Assembly (NCBI GenBank): GCA_964455675.1
Contig: CAYVYK010000008.1
Span: forward strand, 62,001 to 94,015
Direction: 5' to 3'
DNA length: 32,015 nucleotides
DNA from: an uncultured Methanosarcinales archaeon
Lineage (GTDB): Archaea; Nanobdellota; Nanobdellia; Woesearchaeales; CAYVYK01
Positions within the stretch are counted from its first letter, which is position 1. Each line of letters starts with the position of its first letter. Below, piece after piece: positions 8,094-15,019 of the stretch. The notes under the pieces were generated by a model that saw only the letters and a program-made list of their open reading frames with translations, was not told the DNA's origin and did no database searches. Position numbers and translations under genes: made by a program.

Positions 8094-8306
8094 GGACGGT
8101 CAGCCACATATCGGTCCAAGAAAGATTTCCACGAATAGAACATTAATAATAGCGTAGGACGGTCGGCCTCCCTCAGGTCTAAGAAAGAGTTCTATGAATA
8201 AATACGAATAGAAAAATACTGAGAGCGTAGGACGGTCGGCCTCCCTCCGGTCGGCCTTGAACGGACGGCATCTTAAGGCTTCGCCTTAATGATGCCTTTG
8301 CTACGC
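8094..8306 (+). repeat. Three degenerate tandem copies of ggacggtcRgcc-N7-ggtc, the last extended into a GTAG-bounded multi-hairpin (REP-like)
   Basis: Cores at 8094, 8157 and 8230. 8151-8179 and 8224-8252 match at 28/29 bases. gcgtag (8225-8230) pairs with ctacgc (8301-8306). Internal hairpin ggcatc-ttaaggc-ttc-gccttaa-t-gatgcc at 8267-8296. Confidence 0.75.
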
Positions 8307-8349: not shown

Positions 8350-8363
8350 GAGAAAGTTTATAT
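8350..8363 (+). promoter_or_regulatory. BRE + TATA box (gagaaag tttatat) for the lgt-like gene
   Basis: TATA at 8357-8363 is 25-31 nt before ATG 8388, the spacing expected for a leaderless archaeal transcript. Confidence 0.65.
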
Positions 8364-8387: not shown

Positions 8388-9266
8388 ATGGTTATCTATT
8401 TCCCGGTTATCAAATACCTCTATTTTGGCACGTACAAACAGCCCGTGTTCCAGATCACCGGGTATATTGCAGCTGTAGTCGGTCTTTATATCGCATATTA
8501 TCTCCTCAACCAGGAGAAGCAAAAATTGTGGGATATCGCGGGAAGCATGATCGCGGGGGGGATCGGAGTATTCCTGGGAGCGAGACTCTTCTACTTCTTC
8601 GGGCCATGGACAATGCACTATTCATGGACAATCACCGAGCGATTGCTACGGTTCTCAAAGTTCTGGACGGGAGGACTCGTCATGTACGGGGGACTCCTTG
8701 GAGGAATGCTCGTCCTGTACGCATATATTCGCTGGAAGCGATTGTCCGTTCCACAATATTTTGATATCTACGCGATCATGTTTGCTGTTACCCTATTGAT
8801 CGCACGATTCGGGTGCCTCCTCTCGTATGACCACCCAGCAAAAGAAACGAACCTTGCGTTCGGAGTCGTGCATTACACGCATCCAGGGCTCCTTCCGTTT
8901 GGACTCAGCAGCGGTTACAAAACATGGGTACAAGACCATGCAGTATATCCATCAGATATCCTCTACATCCTCTACATGGCCGTACTCGTCGCGCTACTCT
9001 TCTACATCTACTTCCACATCAAGCCAGACCTGTTCAGAGGACACCTCGCGATGTTCACCGCGTTCTTCTACCCTCTGAACAGATTCCTCAACGAGTTCCT
9101 GCGCAGCTACTCATGGCACTTCTTTGGGCTTACAGCATCACAGCTTGTGTGCATCGTAATACTGGCTATAGCGCTCGTCATGCTCCACCGGAAAGGGTAC
9201 AACCTGATTACATTCCTCAAGAAATTATTTACTCGTCCAGATGATCAGAAACATCCTTCTCTCTGA
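8388..9266 (+). CDS. lgt: Prolipoprotein diacylglyceryl transferase (Lgt) family membrane protein
   Basis: Multi-TM protein with Lgt hallmarks in order: GARLFY, W.GGLVMYGGLLGG, ARFGC (RxG motif), YPS.LY, RFLNEFLR, GLTASQ. Confidence 0.85.
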   Translation: MVIYFPVIKYLYFGTYKQPVFQITGYIAAVVGLYIAYYLLNQEKQKLWDIAGSMIAGGIGVFLGARLFYFFGPWTMHYSWTITERLLRFSKFWTGGLVMYGGLLGGMLVLYAYIRWKRLSVPQYFDIYAIMFAVTLLIARFGCLLSYDHPAKETNLAFGVVHYTHPGLLPFGLSSGYKTWVQDHAVYPSDILYILYMAVLVALLFYIYFHIKPDLFRGHLAMFTAFFYPLNRFLNEFLRSYSWHFFGLTASQLVCIVILAIALVMLHRKGYNLITFLKKLFTRPDDQKHPSL

Positions 9267-9471
9267 TAAACGAGATCATCATCTCCCTATCAAGATCATC
9301 AAGACCAGAATCCATGCGCTCAACAGCACTGATCGCGACCGCAGCGTACCCTTTCGGCCAGCATACAACGTACGTTTGAACTCCAACCCTTGAAGGTTTC
9401 CTATACTGCAAATATTCGGTGGTCTCTACGCACTGCTCAACGCCCATGCAACACCAGCATGAATACTCCAT
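9229..9471 (-). CDS. Small hypothetical protein (72-80 aa)
   Basis: It fills the gap between lgt and the minus-strand operon. Minus-strand tttaaata lies at 9479-9486, and an alternative ATG at 9447. It overlaps the lgt 3' end. Confidence 0.35.
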   Translation of the reverse strand: MEYSCWCCMGVEQCVETTEYLQYRKPSRVGVQTYVVCWPKGYAAVAISAVERMDSGLDDLDREMMISFIREKDVSDHLDE

Positions 9472-9540
9472 TTGAGATTATTTAAACATTCGCATTCGGC
9501 AATCCAAAAGCACATACTGCGCAGCGCACCATGGATCGTG

Positions 9541-12084
9541 TTATGCCAATGATTCGAGAAGCGAAGGAGGAACCCGGTGCTCGGGATCTGATTCATTCAT
9601 GTATTCCGCGCGAGCCTCATCCAATCGAGCCTTCTGCACAGCGACAATCGCGTCGGCATTCTGATCAAAGTAGTTATGAACCTGAAAGGCGTGCGCGGCA
9701 AGCCGCTCTCCATACGCAATATCAGGACTGCCATCATACTCAAAATGATCAATAGGGAACTGCTCATTATTGCCCCTGATCCGCATCTCAAGACCGGCAA
9801 CAACATTTGACGGCATACACGTGAACGGCATCAGGTTCACAGCACCGGAGAACCCATGATGCATGGCAAGTGAGAGCTCAGCCGCCGAGATGATCGCCTC
9901 ACCACGGAACGCGAGATCAAGATACTTTGATCCCTCATTTAGCACATCATCAATCGGGGGATCGGGAAACCTTCCCACGATCGGAAGGAAGGGAACCTCA
10001 TACAAACGCTCCTTATTCGACTGATACTCATGCTTACGATGCAGAAGATATGATTGCACCCAGAGGGGAACCACACCAAGCGCCGAAGATTCCTCGCGCC
10101 TTTCCTCAAGATCACGACGCTGCAAGGCCGCGATATACTTCACCCACATCCCAAAGGGAGACATGATGGAACCAATCCCATCCGTCTCGAGAGCGCGCAC
10201 AATACCACGATTGATATGCTCGTTCAAACGCACGTACACCTCGCCAACAACCTGATCGAAGACGGGCGGCTGGTCACGCACGGGAACACGCATCAATTCA
10301 CGAGCAGCATCATATATCAAGTCAAGATACTCATTTCGGTTCTCCATGCGTTCACAGATACCATGCAGAGTGGACTCATAAATTGCATCAACATCACCAG
10401 GAGTTACTTCCCTCACGCGCTGGATGGAGGCAGCCTTTTGCAAGGAATCTATCGCACGGATACCCTTCCATAGATCAGCCTGAAGCTTGATACGATCAAC
10501 GAAATTAAGACCAGCAAGCGAGTAATAGTTCGCCGCATTTAGGGTAAAGAAGCGAAACGGATTATCCTGATACCTTGGAGACGCAAGTATATCCGCAAGG
10601 GATCTCCCCTCCGCAACCATCTCCTGAATCAATTTCCGACGATGAATCTCAAGAACACGGCGGGATTGCTGATTCATGTACTGGCCATACCTACACGGAC
10701 CTGCGGCAGTACCTTGGAAGAACGCAAACCTTCTCGGATCAAAGGAAGCCTCAACAACCTCCTTGCCATCTACATTCACCACATCAACGGGGCCAAGCGC
10801 ATCCGCAAATTTGGAATCGAGGACGATCCCAGGACGGTCCAAACGCACACGACCTGACATGATCGAGCGATAAAAATGGCCACCCGTCTCGGCACAGGGA
10901 ATGCACGCGCCATCATCCGTGAATTTCTTCCCCACGAGAAGTGTCTCATCATTATTCGGCTCAAAGCAGTACGCAGGAACCCCCCATCCACGCATGACGG
11001 CAGCAAAAGGCTGACCATGATCGCACATCAGGTTAAACAAGAGCACGCGACCTTCGGCATCTGTGAGAGGATTATACAGCCTGAGCGGATCCTCAAGCTC
11101 TCTTACCGCGTCTTTTTTCGCGCCACGATTCGCGATCGTGTTCACGTACGACTCAACCCTCGTGCGAATATTCGCGGACATGTCCGCGCTATCAACCTTG
11201 ATCGTTAGCATACTGCCGCCAAGGATATTCTTGACCTCGTCGATGATAAAGGAATCAGGACCACAGGGGAAGCACGTCACATAGATCGGCTTTATGAATG
11301 GATGCTTGCGCACATAGTGAGCTGCGGCAAGCATGCGGACATGATAATTCCAGTACACATGACCATGCAGATCAAGGAATTCCGGCTCACGCACGATCTC
11401 ATGCAACGGAAGCATATCCATACTGATACAGTCATACCCCTTATCCTGGACGATGTGGTCAATATCGCTCTTTAAGCGGAGATCACGCGCAACATAATAC
11501 CTCGCGAGCATGACAAAAAGGGGAGTACCACGTTCAAGAGCCTGCCTCATCGCATCCTGACCAATACCCAGAAGCTGCTGCTGAAACTTACGCTCTGCCG
11601 CAAATGCGTAATCAATCGCAGCAGAGCCGTCCGCTGAAGGATTCAACTCACGCGCGACAGACTCGAGCTGACGGTAGAGCGTGTCGCGCTTACCCTTCCG
11701 AAACTCCAGAACTGGAGCGAGAAACTTTGCGTGATCACCAAAACGAGCGATCTGAAGACCCTTGTTTCCCTGAACATACACGCACATATGAGAATCATGA
11801 ACGTCGTTGTACTCCTCACCCGAGATCAACGCAGGAATGAACACGCGATCAATCGAGGGATCATCAAGGAGGACACTCGTGTGAGCATACGCAAGCTTCT
11901 GCGCAAGACAAGTCTGGGAAGGAGCAAGCTCATCAGCGCGCGCAACAATCCTCTCCGTCGTATCAGGCGAAGGAACCACATTCCAGCCGATACGCTCAAA
12001 GAACTCCCGAAAGAAGGGGTAAAACTCATAAAAGTGCAGAGCTCTTGGATACCCAATAGTGCCGATGGCGTTCTCAAGAGTCAC
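9541..12084 (-). CDS. DUF2229 + 2-hydroxyacyl-CoA dehydratase (HgdD)-like reductase component; PlsA C-terminal/PlsR-like
   Basis: Motifs IGYPRAL.FYE..PFF..FF, SQTCLAQKLAYAH, MCVYVQG, CFPCGPDSF, RTRVES, ACIPC..T.G, GPCRYGQY, VVGEVYVR, GEA and PFTCMPSNV. The GTG start overlaps the upstream stop (GTGA, 12084-12081). Confidence 0.85.
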   Translation of the reverse strand: MTLENAIGTIGYPRALHFYEFYPFFREFFERIGWNVVPSPDTTERIVARADELAPSQTCLAQKLAYAHTSVLLDDPSIDRVFIPALISGEEYNDVHDSHMCVYVQGNKGLQIARFGDHAKFLAPVLEFRKGKRDTLYRQLESVARELNPSADGSAAIDYAFAAERKFQQQLLGIGQDAMRQALERGTPLFVMLARYYVARDLRLKSDIDHIVQDKGYDCISMDMLPLHEIVREPEFLDLHGHVYWNYHVRMLAAAHYVRKHPFIKPIYVTCFPCGPDSFIIDEVKNILGGSMLTIKVDSADMSANIRTRVESYVNTIANRGAKKDAVRELEDPLRLYNPLTDAEGRVLLFNLMCDHGQPFAAVMRGWGVPAYCFEPNNDETLLVGKKFTDDGACIPCAETGGHFYRSIMSGRVRLDRPGIVLDSKFADALGPVDVVNVDGKEVVEASFDPRRFAFFQGTAAGPCRYGQYMNQQSRRVLEIHRRKLIQEMVAEGRSLADILASPRYQDNPFRFFTLNAANYYSLAGLNFVDRIKLQADLWKGIRAIDSLQKAASIQRVREVTPGDVDAIYESTLHGICERMENRNEYLDLIYDAARELMRVPVRDQPPVFDQVVGEVYVRLNEHINRGIVRALETDGIGSIMSPFGMWVKYIAALQRRDLEERREESSALGVVPLWVQSYLLHRKHEYQSNKERLYEVPFLPIVGRFPDPPIDDVLNEGSKYLDLAFRGEAIISAAELSLAMHHGFSGAVNLMPFTCMPSNVVAGLEMRIRGNNEQFPIDHFEYDGSPDIAYGERLAAHAFQVHNYFDQNADAIVAVQKARLDEARAEYMNESDPEHRVPPSLLESLA

Positions 12085-14090
12085 GAGAGCAGCACCTCAC
12101 GAGAACGCTCAATCGGCGTCCTTGCAGTAGTCTTACGCTCAACATTCGTAAACGTTGCATCACACTTCTGACCATCATAAATCGTGCGTTCGGCCGTCTT
12201 AATAACAGAAACATCACACAAGTTCTGGCATCCGCGACAGACAACCGTCCTTTGCGAATAATCATAATCAGCATCCAACCCACGGAATTTCGAGTGGAAA
12301 GTGAGATCAGTCCGGTGCTCGTACTCCTGCACTCGATCGATCGCATAGAGAGCGATACCGAGGCAGCCAGTTTCGGCGCAGGACGGAGGAACAACAAAGC
12401 GATCGAAGTCGTGCAAACGCTGAAATGCGGCAAGCACGGCAACATTCCTTGCCGTACCACCTTGGAAGAAAATAACCTCGTCAGGATTTGGAACGAGCTT
12501 AAGTGACTCCACCAAGTACTCAAGCTGCTTGAACTCATTACCATAATTCCTCGCTATACCAAGAGCAATCCCAGCACAGATATCACTGACAGAAACTCCG
12601 TTCATCGCCGCAAAATCACACTCCTTCTTCATGAATGTCGTGCATCTTCCATGCAACGTATAGAGACCGGAAGACCGGATGGCACCGTGATCAAAAAGAT
12701 CAAGACGCTTCCTGTAATCAGGCTCACCTGGGAAGAGCTTCAAGGCCTGCTCTTCGATGAAGGTACCGGTTCCAGCAGAACAGATCTGATTCATCGCGGA
12801 ACTTAGCACAACACCATCCAAAACCTCCATGTATTTTGAGTCCTGACCACCAATCTCGATGATACCCCGCAGATTGCATCCGAGCTGCCGCGCGAGATGA
12901 AGACCACCAATCGCCTGCGCAGTAATCTCATCCTCTACAAAATCAGCATTAATGAAAAAACCAACCGCATACCTACTCGATCCAGTCGTTGCAACAGCCT
13001 TAATTGGCAAGTCACGACCATGCTTACCAAGGAAGTGAGCAATGCCCTTTCTCGTCGCAATGAGAGGCTTGCCTTCCGTATCAAGATAGATCGCATCAAC
13101 AAGCTCGTGCGTCGAGGCATCAACCAAACCAAGAACCGTGCTCCGAGACCCGATGTCAATACCGATAGCATACTCGTGGCCAGGTCGCACTTTTCCAGAA
13201 AACTGGCCGGGACTATCAAGGTAGACTTTAGACTTTGCCCCACGAAGCCGCAATGGCGATTCGAGCGTCAGAACATTCCTACTCCTCGAAGCAGGAGGCT
13301 GCAATTCATACTTTTCATGCCCAATAATTGCACGAGCGGCACCAATCGCGGCTTGGCACGCTGGATACTCCGCCGGCACAAATAATTCATCAGGAACAGA
13401 TTTTGCCTCACGAATAAAATCCGTCACGAGCTTTTTTTCCGCGAGACGGCCATGCACGGTAAGGGGACCATTGAAACGCTCAACCTTCACGACATCCGAG
13501 TACAAATTCCGAGCAACGCAATTCACGAGACCACGGGCAATCTGACCCTCGGAAAAACCCTTCGAGCTTGTCGTCACACGACGGGACTTGGCAAATACCG
13601 CGCAGCGCGCGACAATTGGCGCCGTGCTTTCCGCCCCTTCTGCCGCGGCAAAGAACGCATCGATCGATGGATACTGCATCGCCTCGCTCTGCTCCTCAAT
13701 AAAAGAGCCTGTGCCGGAAGCACACTTGCTATTTGGCTTGAAAAACTCAAGAGCCCTACCATCTTTTGCAACGAAGCGGCAGCTCTCTGCACCAATATCA
13801 ATAATATACTTTACACCTAACGGGGCGCCAAACATATGAGCCTGGATTTCCGCAATCTTCCTCATGCCAAGCGTTGGCGCAATCTCCGTAGAGAACGCTC
13901 CAAAGACAGCAGCAGAAACGTGAAGACCATCAAACTCGCCGAGCTCTCGGCGCACAGCAGCAACAATACGCTCAAGGTCCTTACCGTGCGGTAGGTAGAG
14001 CGGATCCTTGAGCAGTAGACCTGCATCGTTTAACGCAGCAACCTTCAGGCTGCTCGCACCAACATCGATCCCCAGATAGACATTCTGCAT
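12081..14090 (-). CDS. Tandem BadF/BadG/BcrA/BcrD (ASKHA) ATP-dependent [4Fe-4S] activase, HgdC-like; PlsA N-terminal-like
   Basis: Domain 1: YLGIDVGASS..IIDIGAES..NSKCASGTGSFIEEQ..RCAVFAKS. Domain 2: GIDIGSRST..TTGSSR..EITAQ..IEIGGQDSK..MNQICSAGTGTFIEEQ..RCTTF..FQGGTARN. C-terminal CRGCQNLC..GQKC. ATG 14090 fits the TATA spacing. Confidence 0.9.
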   Translation of the reverse strand: MQNVYLGIDVGASSLKVAALNDAGLLLKDPLYLPHGKDLERIVAAVRRELGEFDGLHVSAAVFGAFSTEIAPTLGMRKIAEIQAHMFGAPLGVKYIIDIGAESCRFVAKDGRALEFFKPNSKCASGTGSFIEEQSEAMQYPSIDAFFAAAEGAESTAPIVARCAVFAKSRRVTTSSKGFSEGQIARGLVNCVARNLYSDVVKVERFNGPLTVHGRLAEKKLVTDFIREAKSVPDELFVPAEYPACQAAIGAARAIIGHEKYELQPPASRSRNVLTLESPLRLRGAKSKVYLDSPGQFSGKVRPGHEYAIGIDIGSRSTVLGLVDASTHELVDAIYLDTEGKPLIATRKGIAHFLGKHGRDLPIKAVATTGSSRYAVGFFINADFVEDEITAQAIGGLHLARQLGCNLRGIIEIGGQDSKYMEVLDGVVLSSAMNQICSAGTGTFIEEQALKLFPGEPDYRKRLDLFDHGAIRSSGLYTLHGRCTTFMKKECDFAAMNGVSVSDICAGIALGIARNYGNEFKQLEYLVESLKLVPNPDEVIFFQGGTARNVAVLAAFQRLHDFDRFVVPPSCAETGCLGIALYAIDRVQEYEHRTDLTFHSKFRGLDADYDYSQRTVVCRGCQNLCDVSVIKTAERTIYDGQKCDATFTNVERKTTARTPIERSREVLLS

Positions 14091-14116
14091 AGATAACACA
14101 GAGGGGTCGCGGTGTG

Positions 14117-14133
14117 TTTAAAAGGGTTTTCTT
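14117..14133 (-). promoter_or_regulatory. BRE + TATA (aagaaaaccc ttttaaa) for the activase operon
   Basis: TATA-like element 27-33 nt upstream of ATG 14090. Confidence 0.55.
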
Positions 14134-14244
14134 GAGTTGTAGTAGAGTCCATATCAACAATTGCGGGAAATGCTTAAACGCGCTTATTTCTTGTTCATAT
14201 CTAATCCTCATATTCCTGGATCGATCCATGGGTGATTTGATCCG

Positions 14245-14261
14245 CACCTATTATATAGGTG
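14245..14261 (+). promoter_or_regulatory. TATA box (ttatata) embedded in a perfect 7-bp inverted repeat cacctat-tat-ataggtg
   Basis: TATA at 14251-14257 is 25-31 nt before ATG 14282. The IR is read directly. Confidence 0.6.
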
Positions 14262-14281
14262 ATATCTATTGAAGATACTCC

Positions 14282-15019
14282 ATGGCAAAGGTATACTTTA
14301 CTACAAAGGACGGAAATCGGATATGCGGGATCCATCACGAAGGCACACACCCAAGCTTGGTCATTCTATGGCATGGATTTCGATCAAACAAGGATAGCAC
14401 CACAAATCGCGCGATCGAACCATTGCTTCTTGGCGAGGGAATCGGGGTGCTTCGGGCGGATTTCTATGGGCACGGAGAAAGCTTTGGCAAGTTCGAGGAT
14501 GTCACAATCACCGAGGCTGTGGAAGATGTCTGTGCATCCGTCGGATGGGCACGAAAACGAGGATACAAACGCATCGGACTCCTTGGATCCAGCTTTGGAG
14601 GACTTGCATGCCTCATCGCCGCAAGCAAAGTCAGCGTGGAAGCTCTCGGCCTTCGATGCCCGGTTATCCAAAAGATGGGGGATACCATTTCGGACGATCC
14701 GAAACAATGGAAAAAGAAAAAATTCCTCGACCTTGAAAAGATAGATGGAAAGGGTGCGCGACTTTCCTACTCGTTCTATGAAGACGCACAACAATGGGAT
14801 GGGTTTGCCCTCGCGCGCAAGGTCGCGTGCCCAACACTCATCATTCACGGAGATGCAGACACAATCGTTCCATGCGAAGACAGCAAACACATCGCAAAGC
14901 TCCTGCAGGATTCAGAAATCTATATCATCAAGGGAGCTGACCACAGATTCTCCGCCCACACCGAGATACTCCTTGGAAAGTTCATCGCGTTCTTTCACAA
15001 ACATCTCAACGCACAATAA
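14282..15019 (+). CDS. Alpha/beta-fold serine hydrolase (esterase/lipase/peptidase-like)
   Basis: HGF oxyanion motif, RADFYGHGESFG, nucleophile elbow GSSFGG, PTLIIHGDADTIVP (Asp) and GADHRF (His): a complete Ser-Asp-His triad. Confidence 0.92.
   Translation: MAKVYFTTKDGNRICGIHHEGTHPSLVILWHGFRSNKDSTTNRAIEPLLLGEGIGVLRADFYGHGESFGKFEDVTITEAVEDVCASVGWARKRGYKRIGLLGSSFGGLACLIAASKVSVEALGLRCPVIQKMGDTISDDPKQWKKKKFLDLEKIDGKGARLSYSFYEDAQQWDGFALARKVACPTLIIHGDADTIVPCEDSKHIAKLLQDSEIYIIKGADHRFSAHTEILLGKFIAFFHKHLNAQ

Follow-up and report, generated by a model that had tools for sequence, protein, structure and literature searches.

A split, strongly diverged candidate of the PlsA/PlsR–Ger ester reductase family in a woesearchaeal genome

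The closest described counterparts of the gene pair treated here are the glycerol ester reductase Ger and the plasmalogen synthase PlsA/PlsR. The layout given for Ger is BBD, continued by small D and H pieces; its C-terminal part is said to vary among homologues, and the required domains are described as unknown (PMC13159169). The published screen for Ger/PlsA homologues applied an E-value of ≤1e-50 and a coverage of ≥30%. Sahonero-Canavesi et al. 2022 (PMC13159169) list Ger homologues in Woesearchaeota, Pacearchaeota, Methanosarcinales, Methanomicrobiales, and Asgard archaea, and a 2025 study of the Black Sea (PMC11868695) reports matches to Ger, Mss, and ElbD in metagenome-assembled genomes of Woesearchaeia. 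The hypothesis that Woesearchaeia with Ger modify the lipids of their hosts is thus not new and has been in print since 2022 and again in 2025 (PMC13159169, PMC11868695). Here we describe a candidate of this family from GenBank assembly GCA_964455675.1, deposited as an uncultured Methanosarcinales archaeon and placed by GTDB in the order Woesearchaeales, family CAYVYK01. The window analysed, a stretch of 32,015 nt, comprises positions 62,001 to 94,015 of contig CAYVYK010000008.1; coordinates given without a contig are positions within it, and all four genes of the finding lie at the coordinates given below. Two adjoining genes on its minus strand encode, as we propose with moderate confidence from sequence comparisons, a split and strongly diverged ATP-driven Fe-S ester reductase of the PlsA/PlsR–Ger type that would act on glycerolipid from outside.

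The upstream gene (12081..14090, minus strand) was assigned by Pfam, NCBIfam, and alignment to a double BcrAD/BadFG activase of 669 aa. Its frame (12081-14099) contains two BcrAD_BadFG stretches (PF01869 in Pfam), a feature of the PlsA/PlsR–Ger family, and the product scores 134 bits, above the cut-off, against the NCBIfam model CoA_E_activ (TIGR00241). Although the frame is open from a GTG at 14099, the start most likely is the ATG at 14090, which gives 669 aa, the length of the database entry of this protein. In an alignment of 87 rows, Cys126 and Cys166 are kept in 95% of the rows, and Cys440, Cys486, and the residues Cys621/624/628/646 in 100%; the C-terminus (residues 621-646) has a CxxCxxxC...C motif. 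The TGA stop codon of the activase lies over the GTG start codon of the catalytic gene, so that the sequence reads GTGA (12081..12084, minus strand). Because of this overlap, which suggests translational coupling, the pair is read as one coupled unit. A TATA-like box (TTTTAAA, 14117..14123, minus strand), located 27-33 nt upstream of the ATG, would be a candidate archaeal promoter of a leaderless transcript of the pair. The coupled two-gene unit recognised in the preliminary description of the locus is real, with PF01869 occurring twice and followed by PF09989.

The downstream gene (9541..12084, minus strand) codes for a putative catalytic reductase/dehydratase-like protein of 847 aa, an assignment that draws on Pfam (PF09989), colinearity, and invariant cysteines. 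DUF2229 (PF09989), the second feature of family membership, occupies residues 9-225 with an E-value of 1.4e-38 in Pfam. Six cysteines (C59, C101, C274, C394, C464, and C756) are invariant across 58 sequences. When the alignment of these sequences (A2) was cut at residue 335 and the halves were compared by hhalign, residues 1-335 and 336-847 aligned over 309 columns with 96.9% probability and an E-value of 1.8e-10. In this comparison C59/C101/C274 are in register with C394/C464/C756, and the second half carries an insertion relative to the consensus. As judged from this alignment, the two homologous three-Cys halves are the alpha/beta-like module pair expected of the superfamily of benzoyl-CoA reductases (BCR) and 2-hydroxyacyl-CoA dehydratases (HAD). 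Moreover, 94-95% of the protein can be aligned colinearly with fused proteins. Some of the fused proteins have weak HGD-D matches, and in the homologues P0004 and P0013 such matches, of 28-29 bits, lie at the position equivalent to the C-terminal part of the catalytic protein. The module order, B-B in the first gene and D plus a second HgdA/B-like half in the second, is as described for PlsA/PlsR and Ger (PMC13159169, PMC12838417), and the architecture initially proposed for the locus could be upheld.

In the Protein Data Bank (PDB), no solved HAD or BCR subunit was matched significantly by the 847-aa protein or by the 58-sequence profile, and HgdAB and BCR chains proved too remote for an alignment. 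The top matches, both named 'Dehydratase family protein' (7yyl_C and 6eno_A), had E-values of 0.32 and 0.75 and are not significant. Because protein and profile are without a significant solved-chain match, the dehydratases of amino-acid fermentation, named at the outset as a competing affiliation, and the benzoyl-CoA reductases are not close relatives. The pair does not show the features of a 2-hydroxyacyl-CoA dehydratase or benzoyl-CoA reductase proper: HGD-D and significant PDB matches are missing, the activase is a fused double domain, and no gene for a CoA-transferase or ligase is among the 17 window ORFs scanned. In the ESM Atlas, the look-alikes of residues 336-847 are bacterial stand-alone proteins of 447-506 aa (score 0.92), which we regard as a lead only.

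A search with the catalytic protein returned 37 proteins. The first two are 60% and 57% identical to the query; the others are mostly proteins of ~1400 aa with the composition BcrAD-BcrAD-DUF2229, some with an additional HGD-D, which share 20-30% identity and in most cases cover ~90% or more of the query. The closest named match among the 37 is from Thermosulfurimonas dismutans. The other wide search matched 1149 proteins. The best 80 species-genome loci were all bacterial, belonged to uncultured or candidate taxa, and included neither T. maritima nor C. perfringens; in nearly all of them, the activase corresponds to residues ~1-670 and the catalytic protein to residues ~680-1400 of one open reading frame (ORF), with E-values down to ~1e-97. 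The nearest named relatives are Thermodesulfobacteriota, Planctomycetota including Brocadia, and delta-proteobacterial lineages, all of which are among the groups listed as carriers of Ger homologues (PMC13159169, PMC11868695). An exhaustive HMMER search against 1.84 billion representatives yielded 2147 proteins with E≤1e-3, of which 219 reached E≤1e-30. The cluster of the relatives has members on ENA contigs no longer than 15.3 kb and on Tara fragments from mesopelagic samples (0.1-0.22 µm fraction), and a metagenome scan for relatives returned a single locus, which is 28% identical. In relatives with 57-63% identity, encoded on contigs of 6.6 kb (P0002/P0039), 11.6 kb (P0003), and 15.3 kb (P0320), both the full length and the same two-gene split are kept. 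One of them, P0039, is 63% identical to the activase and sits on a contig of the same size (6606 bp) as that of P0002, a relative of the catalytic protein. Because P0039 ends at the same residue as the activase, the cut at the joint between Act2 and DUF2229 is conserved.

Further arrangements of DUF2229 genes were observed. One genome of the same order (G213:C16, L046, 3811-8132) has a pair of 660 and 782 aa that is cut as in the window and only 25% identical; in another (G186:C9, L047, 8038-12698) the proteins have 1090 and 463 aa, and the cut follows DUF2229 like that of PlsA/PlsR. A three-gene split (G089:C21, L052, 87-5396) comprises a DUF2229 protein of 326 aa, a DUF2229/HGD-D protein of 354 aa, and a single activase of 319 aa, and this set stands directly upstream of two genes for MMPL-family transporters. 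An MMPL-type transporter also is present in the genome containing the window, a finding that is uninformative as 13 of 14 control genomes match too. In another genome of the order (G118:C1, L045, 7810-13248), a fused Ger-like gene of 1341 aa is followed by a convergent gene for a B12-binding radical SAM protein of 484 aa, which may be a partner of the Ger-like gene resembling membrane-spanning lipid synthases. Of the 14 controls, four matched DUF2229, Thermotoga maritima, the host of Ger, and Lactococcus lactis among them; the four archaeal controls were all negative.

The genome to which the window belongs has 1.72 Mb in 25 contigs and is 99% complete. Its small- and large-subunit rRNAs match archaeal models, in agreement with the initial impression of an archaeon, and the genome is DPANN-like. 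It is the sole member of its family, in an order that has far more than 100 families and genomes of ~0.6-2.7 Mb. No RNA run holding the lineage was listed, and the DNA runs were two from one sludge-metagenome study. PcrB/GGGP synthase, CarS, PlsY, and CdsA gave zero matches each in this 99% complete genome; across the order, PcrB produced marginal partial matches only (≤25 bits, 13 of 101 genomes). Bacterial-type genes for lipid handling are present. These include two PlsC-type acyltransferases, one of which is encoded directly after LspA and is a candidate for further lipoprotein acylation. The gene of LspA (151059-151448 on contig C2) overlaps the following PlsC-type acyltransferase gene; the two genes together occupy G000:C2:151059-152023 (L010:1453-2657), G000 being the genome of the window, and several ORFs with lipoboxes and a DedA/VTT protein are found nearby. 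A lipobox-like start, defined by a crude pattern, occurs in 42 of 1631 ORFs of the genome, versus 1-2 in five shuffles of the N-termini. A scan of 39 of the 64 listed ORFs revealed, on contig C12 (L143), a FabF-like stand-alone ketoacyl synthase of 482 aa (42299-43748) and a PLD-like protein of 318 aa (47335-48291). The UbiA protein of the genome adjoins PMT_2 glycosyltransferases, and a gene of the pyruvate:ferredoxin oxidoreductase type was found with 178.9 bits. By this inventory, the organism looks able to remodel lipids but not to make lipid backbones. Such a picture of remodelling without synthesis fits the published view of these DPANN archaea (PMC11868695).

The present analysis shows the architecture, the conservation of the metal ligands, the coupling of both genes, the inventory of lipid genes, and a ferredoxin-reducing enzyme in the genome; we infer the mechanism of the pair from knowledge of the BCR/HAD family and of PlsA and Ger, and this applies to substrate, product, and lipid source alike. 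Reduced ferredoxin would charge a [4Fe-4S] cluster that bridges the paired ATPase domains of the activase, and ATP hydrolysis would then drive the electron into the two three-Cys clusters of the 847-aa protein. The latter would act on a preformed glycerolipid, whose sn-1 acyl ester it would convert by reduction into an alk-1-enyl or alkyl ether. As the searches of the genome revealed no archaeal or bacterial pathway for lipid backbones, a diacyl lipid from outside, most likely from a bacterial partner, would serve as the substrate.

Several observations weigh against this assignment. Membership in the PlsA/PlsR–Ger family is suggested by architecture and by homology to relatives that are themselves uncharacterised. 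No NCBIfam family was found for the catalytic part of the window protein and three relatives, and HGD-D (PF06050) gave no match in the catalytic protein in Pfam even at an E-value of 10. The early designation of the second half as 'HgdD-like' is supported indirectly, through colinearity with the fused proteins and the homology of the two halves, and not by a domain match. In the HMMER search, one fragment of 256 aa outside the query's own cluster reached 56% identity, and everything else remained at ≤35%. In a first tree of the catalytic part (91 rows, IQ-TREE quick search, LG+G4), from which rows matching fewer than 700 query residues had been omitted (L045, L047, L051, L052, L075, L082, and L119), the query, P0002, and P0003 grouped in a clade that had 100% support and a stem length of 1.56 substitutions per site. 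This stem reached 2.07 in a second tree of 66 chosen rows under a mixture model, which came with a warning of long-branch attraction and placed the clade in an unresolved group of ten rows that also contains a second long-branched clade from this order and a small clade of mixed composition. Such divergence of the window clade could accompany a changed substrate. Within the order, 23 of 301 genomes encode a DUF2229 protein, 22 of them with scores above the cut-off; the count includes the genome of the window and two unpublished genomes that were otherwise left aside. In the 66-row tree, proteins from the order fall into three or more distinct groups, so that the gene is polyphyletic in the order, and because of this distribution and the low number of carriers the enzyme is not required for the lifestyle of the order. 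In addition, PMC11868695 treats alkyl- and alkenyl-forming enzymes (Ger and PlsA, respectively) as indistinguishable by sequence. Finally, a true cyclopropane-fatty-acid synthase was not found in the genome, where CMAS gave generic matches at methyltransferase level (≤28 bits), and the radical SAM neighbour of the fused Ger-like gene (L045) has only generic relatives there.

The main alternative, which we hold to be less probable, is that the pair performs the same chemistry on another substrate, namely as a DUF2229-family ATP-dependent Fe-S reductase/dehydratase of a non-membrane-lipid ester or acyl compound that perhaps is linked to the neighbouring hydrolase. The very long stem (1.56-2.07 substitutions per site) and the insertion in the second half would agree with such a change, as would the DUF2229 score of 133 bits, compared with 118-235 bits in 14 large DUF2229 proteins from 13 loci of the same order. 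Only two functions have been tested in this large family (PMC13159169, PMC12838417). Nevertheless, all characterised enzymes of the DUF2229 type act on glycerolipid esters, and no gene for a CoA-transferase or ligase is among the 17 window ORFs scanned. The hydrolase bears on this alternative in both directions. Its gene (14282..15019, plus strand) diverges from the pair across ~190 bp, and Pfam and PDB matches identify the product as a putative cytoplasmic alpha/beta serine hydrolase of 245 aa, with Hydrolase_4 as the best Pfam family, a GSSFG nucleophile elbow, and no signal peptide. Among solved structures in the PDB, esterases for cinnamoyl, feruloyl, and chlorogenic acid esters come closest, with E-values from 1.7e-23 (3pf8, a cinnamoyl esterase) to 1e-16; monoacylglycerol lipases match weakly (E 1.6e-7 or weaker). 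This likeness would suit a non-lipid substrate, yet the hydrolase gene has a TATA-like box of its own (TTATATA, 14251..14257, plus strand, 25-31 nt upstream of its ATG, read from the sequence) and no homologue in 94 related loci. The hydrolase probably is not part of the ester-reductase system.

The divergence, together with the patchy and polyphyletic distribution in the order, might also be explained if the pair were an inactive relic of an old transfer from bacteria. We consider this very improbable. Both reading frames and the start/stop overlap are intact, all 14 predicted metal-binding cysteines are kept, and the relatives at 57-63% identity have retained full length and split. The pair, with its predicted Fe-S cysteines complete, shows no sign of decay that could be read from its sequence. 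The GC and GC3 contents of the activase and catalytic genes are within one standard deviation of the genome's genes, and the codon-usage distance of the pair is near the 90th percentile of long genes, so that there is no clear signal of recent transfer.

The fourth gene of the locus, lgt (8388..9266, plus strand), converges on the pair, whereas the hydrolase gene diverges from it, and both orientations agree with the preliminary description. That description had joined the four genes in one module, in which the pair makes an ether lipid from a scavenged diacyl lipid, trimming is left to the hydrolase, and lipobox proteins receive the altered glyceryl group from the divergent Lgt. Such an integrated module is unlikely. 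In its favour, an Lgt directly beside the pair would be expected by chance in only about 1 of 100 cases (3 Lgt among ~1631 ORFs, a post hoc estimate), the genome encodes LspA and the 42 lipobox-like ORFs, and the lineage-specific Lgt of the window keeps the positions of R143, Y235, R239, and E243 of the E. coli enzyme. However, a phmmer search with the hydrolase, the window Lgt, the canonical Lgt of the genome, an 80-aa ORF, and a 298-aa neighbour against 4417 ORFs of the 94 related loci detected the canonical Lgt in one locus, 4.6 kb from the related gene, and each of the four others in none (0/94). These loci contain no close relative of the window pair, and a lineage-specific link could escape them. 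LGT also was absent beside the DUF2229 gene in all 13 loci of the same order (0/13), of which 105 of 145 listed ORFs were scanned, those farthest from the central gene having been dropped; one of these loci has a weak alpha/beta hydrolase. In the loci examined, the linkage postulated for the module is not conserved, an outcome that the preliminary description had itself named as refuting the idea. In addition, LGT is nearly universal in the order with or without a DUF2229 protein (281 versus 23 of 301 genomes), the window Lgt reads Y and C at the positions of E. coli H103 and N146, and the nearest solved relatives of the hydrolase are esterases, which disagrees with the lipid-trimming role once assigned to it. 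The gene order argues in the same direction: lgt, with its own TATA-like box (8357-8363, plus strand, read from the upstream sequence), follows a co-directional run of genes for giant surface proteins, and its sister on contig C10 adjoins giant surface proteins, too. With a TATA-like box located 25-33 nt before the start codon in each of the three units, the pair, lgt, and the hydrolase gene would have separate archaeal promoters and leaderless transcripts. We treat the lgt paralogue and the esterase as separate transcription units that are unrelated, or at most loosely related, to the pair, and the window Lgt, too, probably is not part of the ester-reductase system.

The product of lgt is a divergent Lgt-family paralogue of 292 aa. 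It matches PF01790 with an E-value of 7.6e-30 and 104 bits (cut-off 24.9) over profile positions 19-238 of 240, and it scores far below the cut-offs of all NCBIfam Lgt models, the equivalogs among them. The genome holds three LGT genes: a canonical one (G000:C16:16453-17175), a divergent one (C10:68926-69693, L148:5897-6766), and the divergent copy of the window. The canonical Lgt scores 213 bits and shares 37-43% identity with a sample of six Lgts from elsewhere in the order. The window Lgt is 36.7% identical to the C10 copy, both are ~25% identical to canonical Lgts, and both adjoin genes for giant surface proteins. From these comparisons, the window Lgt is a divergent spare copy and not the housekeeping enzyme, and the two divergent paralogues may be dedicated to the lipidation of the giant surface proteins. 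A search for relatives of the window Lgt gave six matches, all at ≤28% identity and none from the contigs of 6606 or 11638 bp, and it missed the genome's own 36.7% copy, so that this negative carries little weight. The alignment with E. coli Lgt (5azb) is weak, with an E-value of 0.0049 and 19.6 bits, and it is in this alignment that the positions of R143, Y235, R239, and E243 are kept and those of H103 and N146 read Y and C. H103, N146, Y235, and E243 are among the important residues of E. coli Lgt. R143 and R239 are reported as important in PMC12462473. Within the order, LGT was found in 281 of 301 genomes, a count that includes nine unpublished ones, and in 210 of the 222 genomes of high quality; for LspA, the figure was 55 of 61 genomes of the order. 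Outside the order but within the class, LGT was detected in 11 of 14 genomes. Lgt and LspA of the bacterial type belong to the core gene set of this archaeal order. PMC12462473 and PMC6098224 state that no archaeal homologues are known.

A variant of these ideas is a private anchor-remodelling unit, in which the Ger-like pair would produce ether phosphatidylglycerol from host lipid, the adjoining Lgt paralogue would prefer this ether donor, and the giant adhesins would obtain esterase-resistant anchors. We regard this as quite unlikely. If true, it would more broadly imply an archaeon that lives on bacterial-type sn-glycerol-3-phosphate ether lipids made from stolen ester lipids.

The remainder of the window codes for giant surface proteins with TSP3, cadherin-like, and CARDB domains. 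According to the ORF list, a possible Cys-rich ORF of 80 aa (9229-9471, minus strand), here treated as a candidate gene, lies downstream of the catalytic gene and overlaps the 3' end of lgt by 38 nt. Its N-terminus reads CWCC...C...C; it has no Pfam family, and phmmer found no homologue in the 94 related loci. Upstream of lgt, at 8131-8252, a 49-nt unit recurs at a spacing of 73 nt. The 21-nt core of this unit, GTAGGACGGTCGGCCTCCCTC, has 26 copies with up to three mismatches on 12 contigs of the genome, often as close pairs, and the repeats that bear it are an undescribed dispersed repeat family.

The putative ester-reductase pair is of value as a well-characterised candidate and not as a discovery; it represents a real, divergent, and split version of a family already known. 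If the pair reduces scavenged bacterial ester lipids, its two genes would make a concrete construct with which to test whether host lipids are rebuilt by DPANN archaea, a question that bears on the 'lipid divide' and on the identity of the hosts of Woesearchaeota. The lineage of the window, as an extreme outlier among PlsA/Ger sequences that has every metal ligand, can also help to define the essential parts of these enzymes.

Among the known systems, Ger (T. maritima Tmari_0479; SHJ90043 of Desulfatibacillum alkenivorans) shares with the pair the two BcrAD/BadFG domains, DUF2229, and a second reductase/dehydratase-like part. The family occurs in anaerobes, and homologues have been reported in Woesearchaeota and Pacearchaeota (PMC13159169). 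Ger is one protein of ~1400 aa, however, whereas the window has two genes cut at the joint of Act2 and DUF2229. The window protein also differs in having no detectable HGD-D and at most 35% identity to any bacterial fused homologue, and its likeness to Ger is based on the described architecture. The neighbouring genes likewise have solved counterparts. The hydrolase resembles the cinnamoyl/feruloyl esterases (PDB 3PF8 and 2WTM; E 1.7e-23 to 7.7e-20) over almost its full length and shares their GxSxG. The window Lgt resembles E. coli Lgt (PDB 5AZB/5AZC) in its above-cut-off match to PF01790 and in the kept positions R143, Y235, R239, and E243, and departs from it, in a weak alignment, by having YGGL in place of HGGL and C in place of the N of GRLGNF. 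The HgdAB/HgdC dehydratases and class I benzoyl-CoA reductases resemble the pair in the ASKHA-type activase, with two cysteines per domain for the bridging cluster, and in a catalytic part composed of two homologous three-Cys halves. In contrast to their separate single-domain activases, that of the window is a fused double domain, and no CoA-transferase or ligase (among the 17 window ORFs scanned), HGD-D Pfam match, or significant PDB match accompanies it. PlsA-PlsR (CPE1194/1195 of Clostridium perfringens; single-gene PlsA in Enterococcus and Lactococcus) has the modules Act1, Act2, Red1, and Red2 and Fe-S chemistry of the BCR/HAD type, and an operon of two genes is one of its described forms (PMC12838417, PMC9702350). 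The position of the cut differs: to judge from the protein lengths in PMC12838417, C. perfringens would be cut after Red1, with PlsA comprising Act1-Act2-Red1 and PlsR comprising Red2, whereas the pair in the window is cut after Act2.

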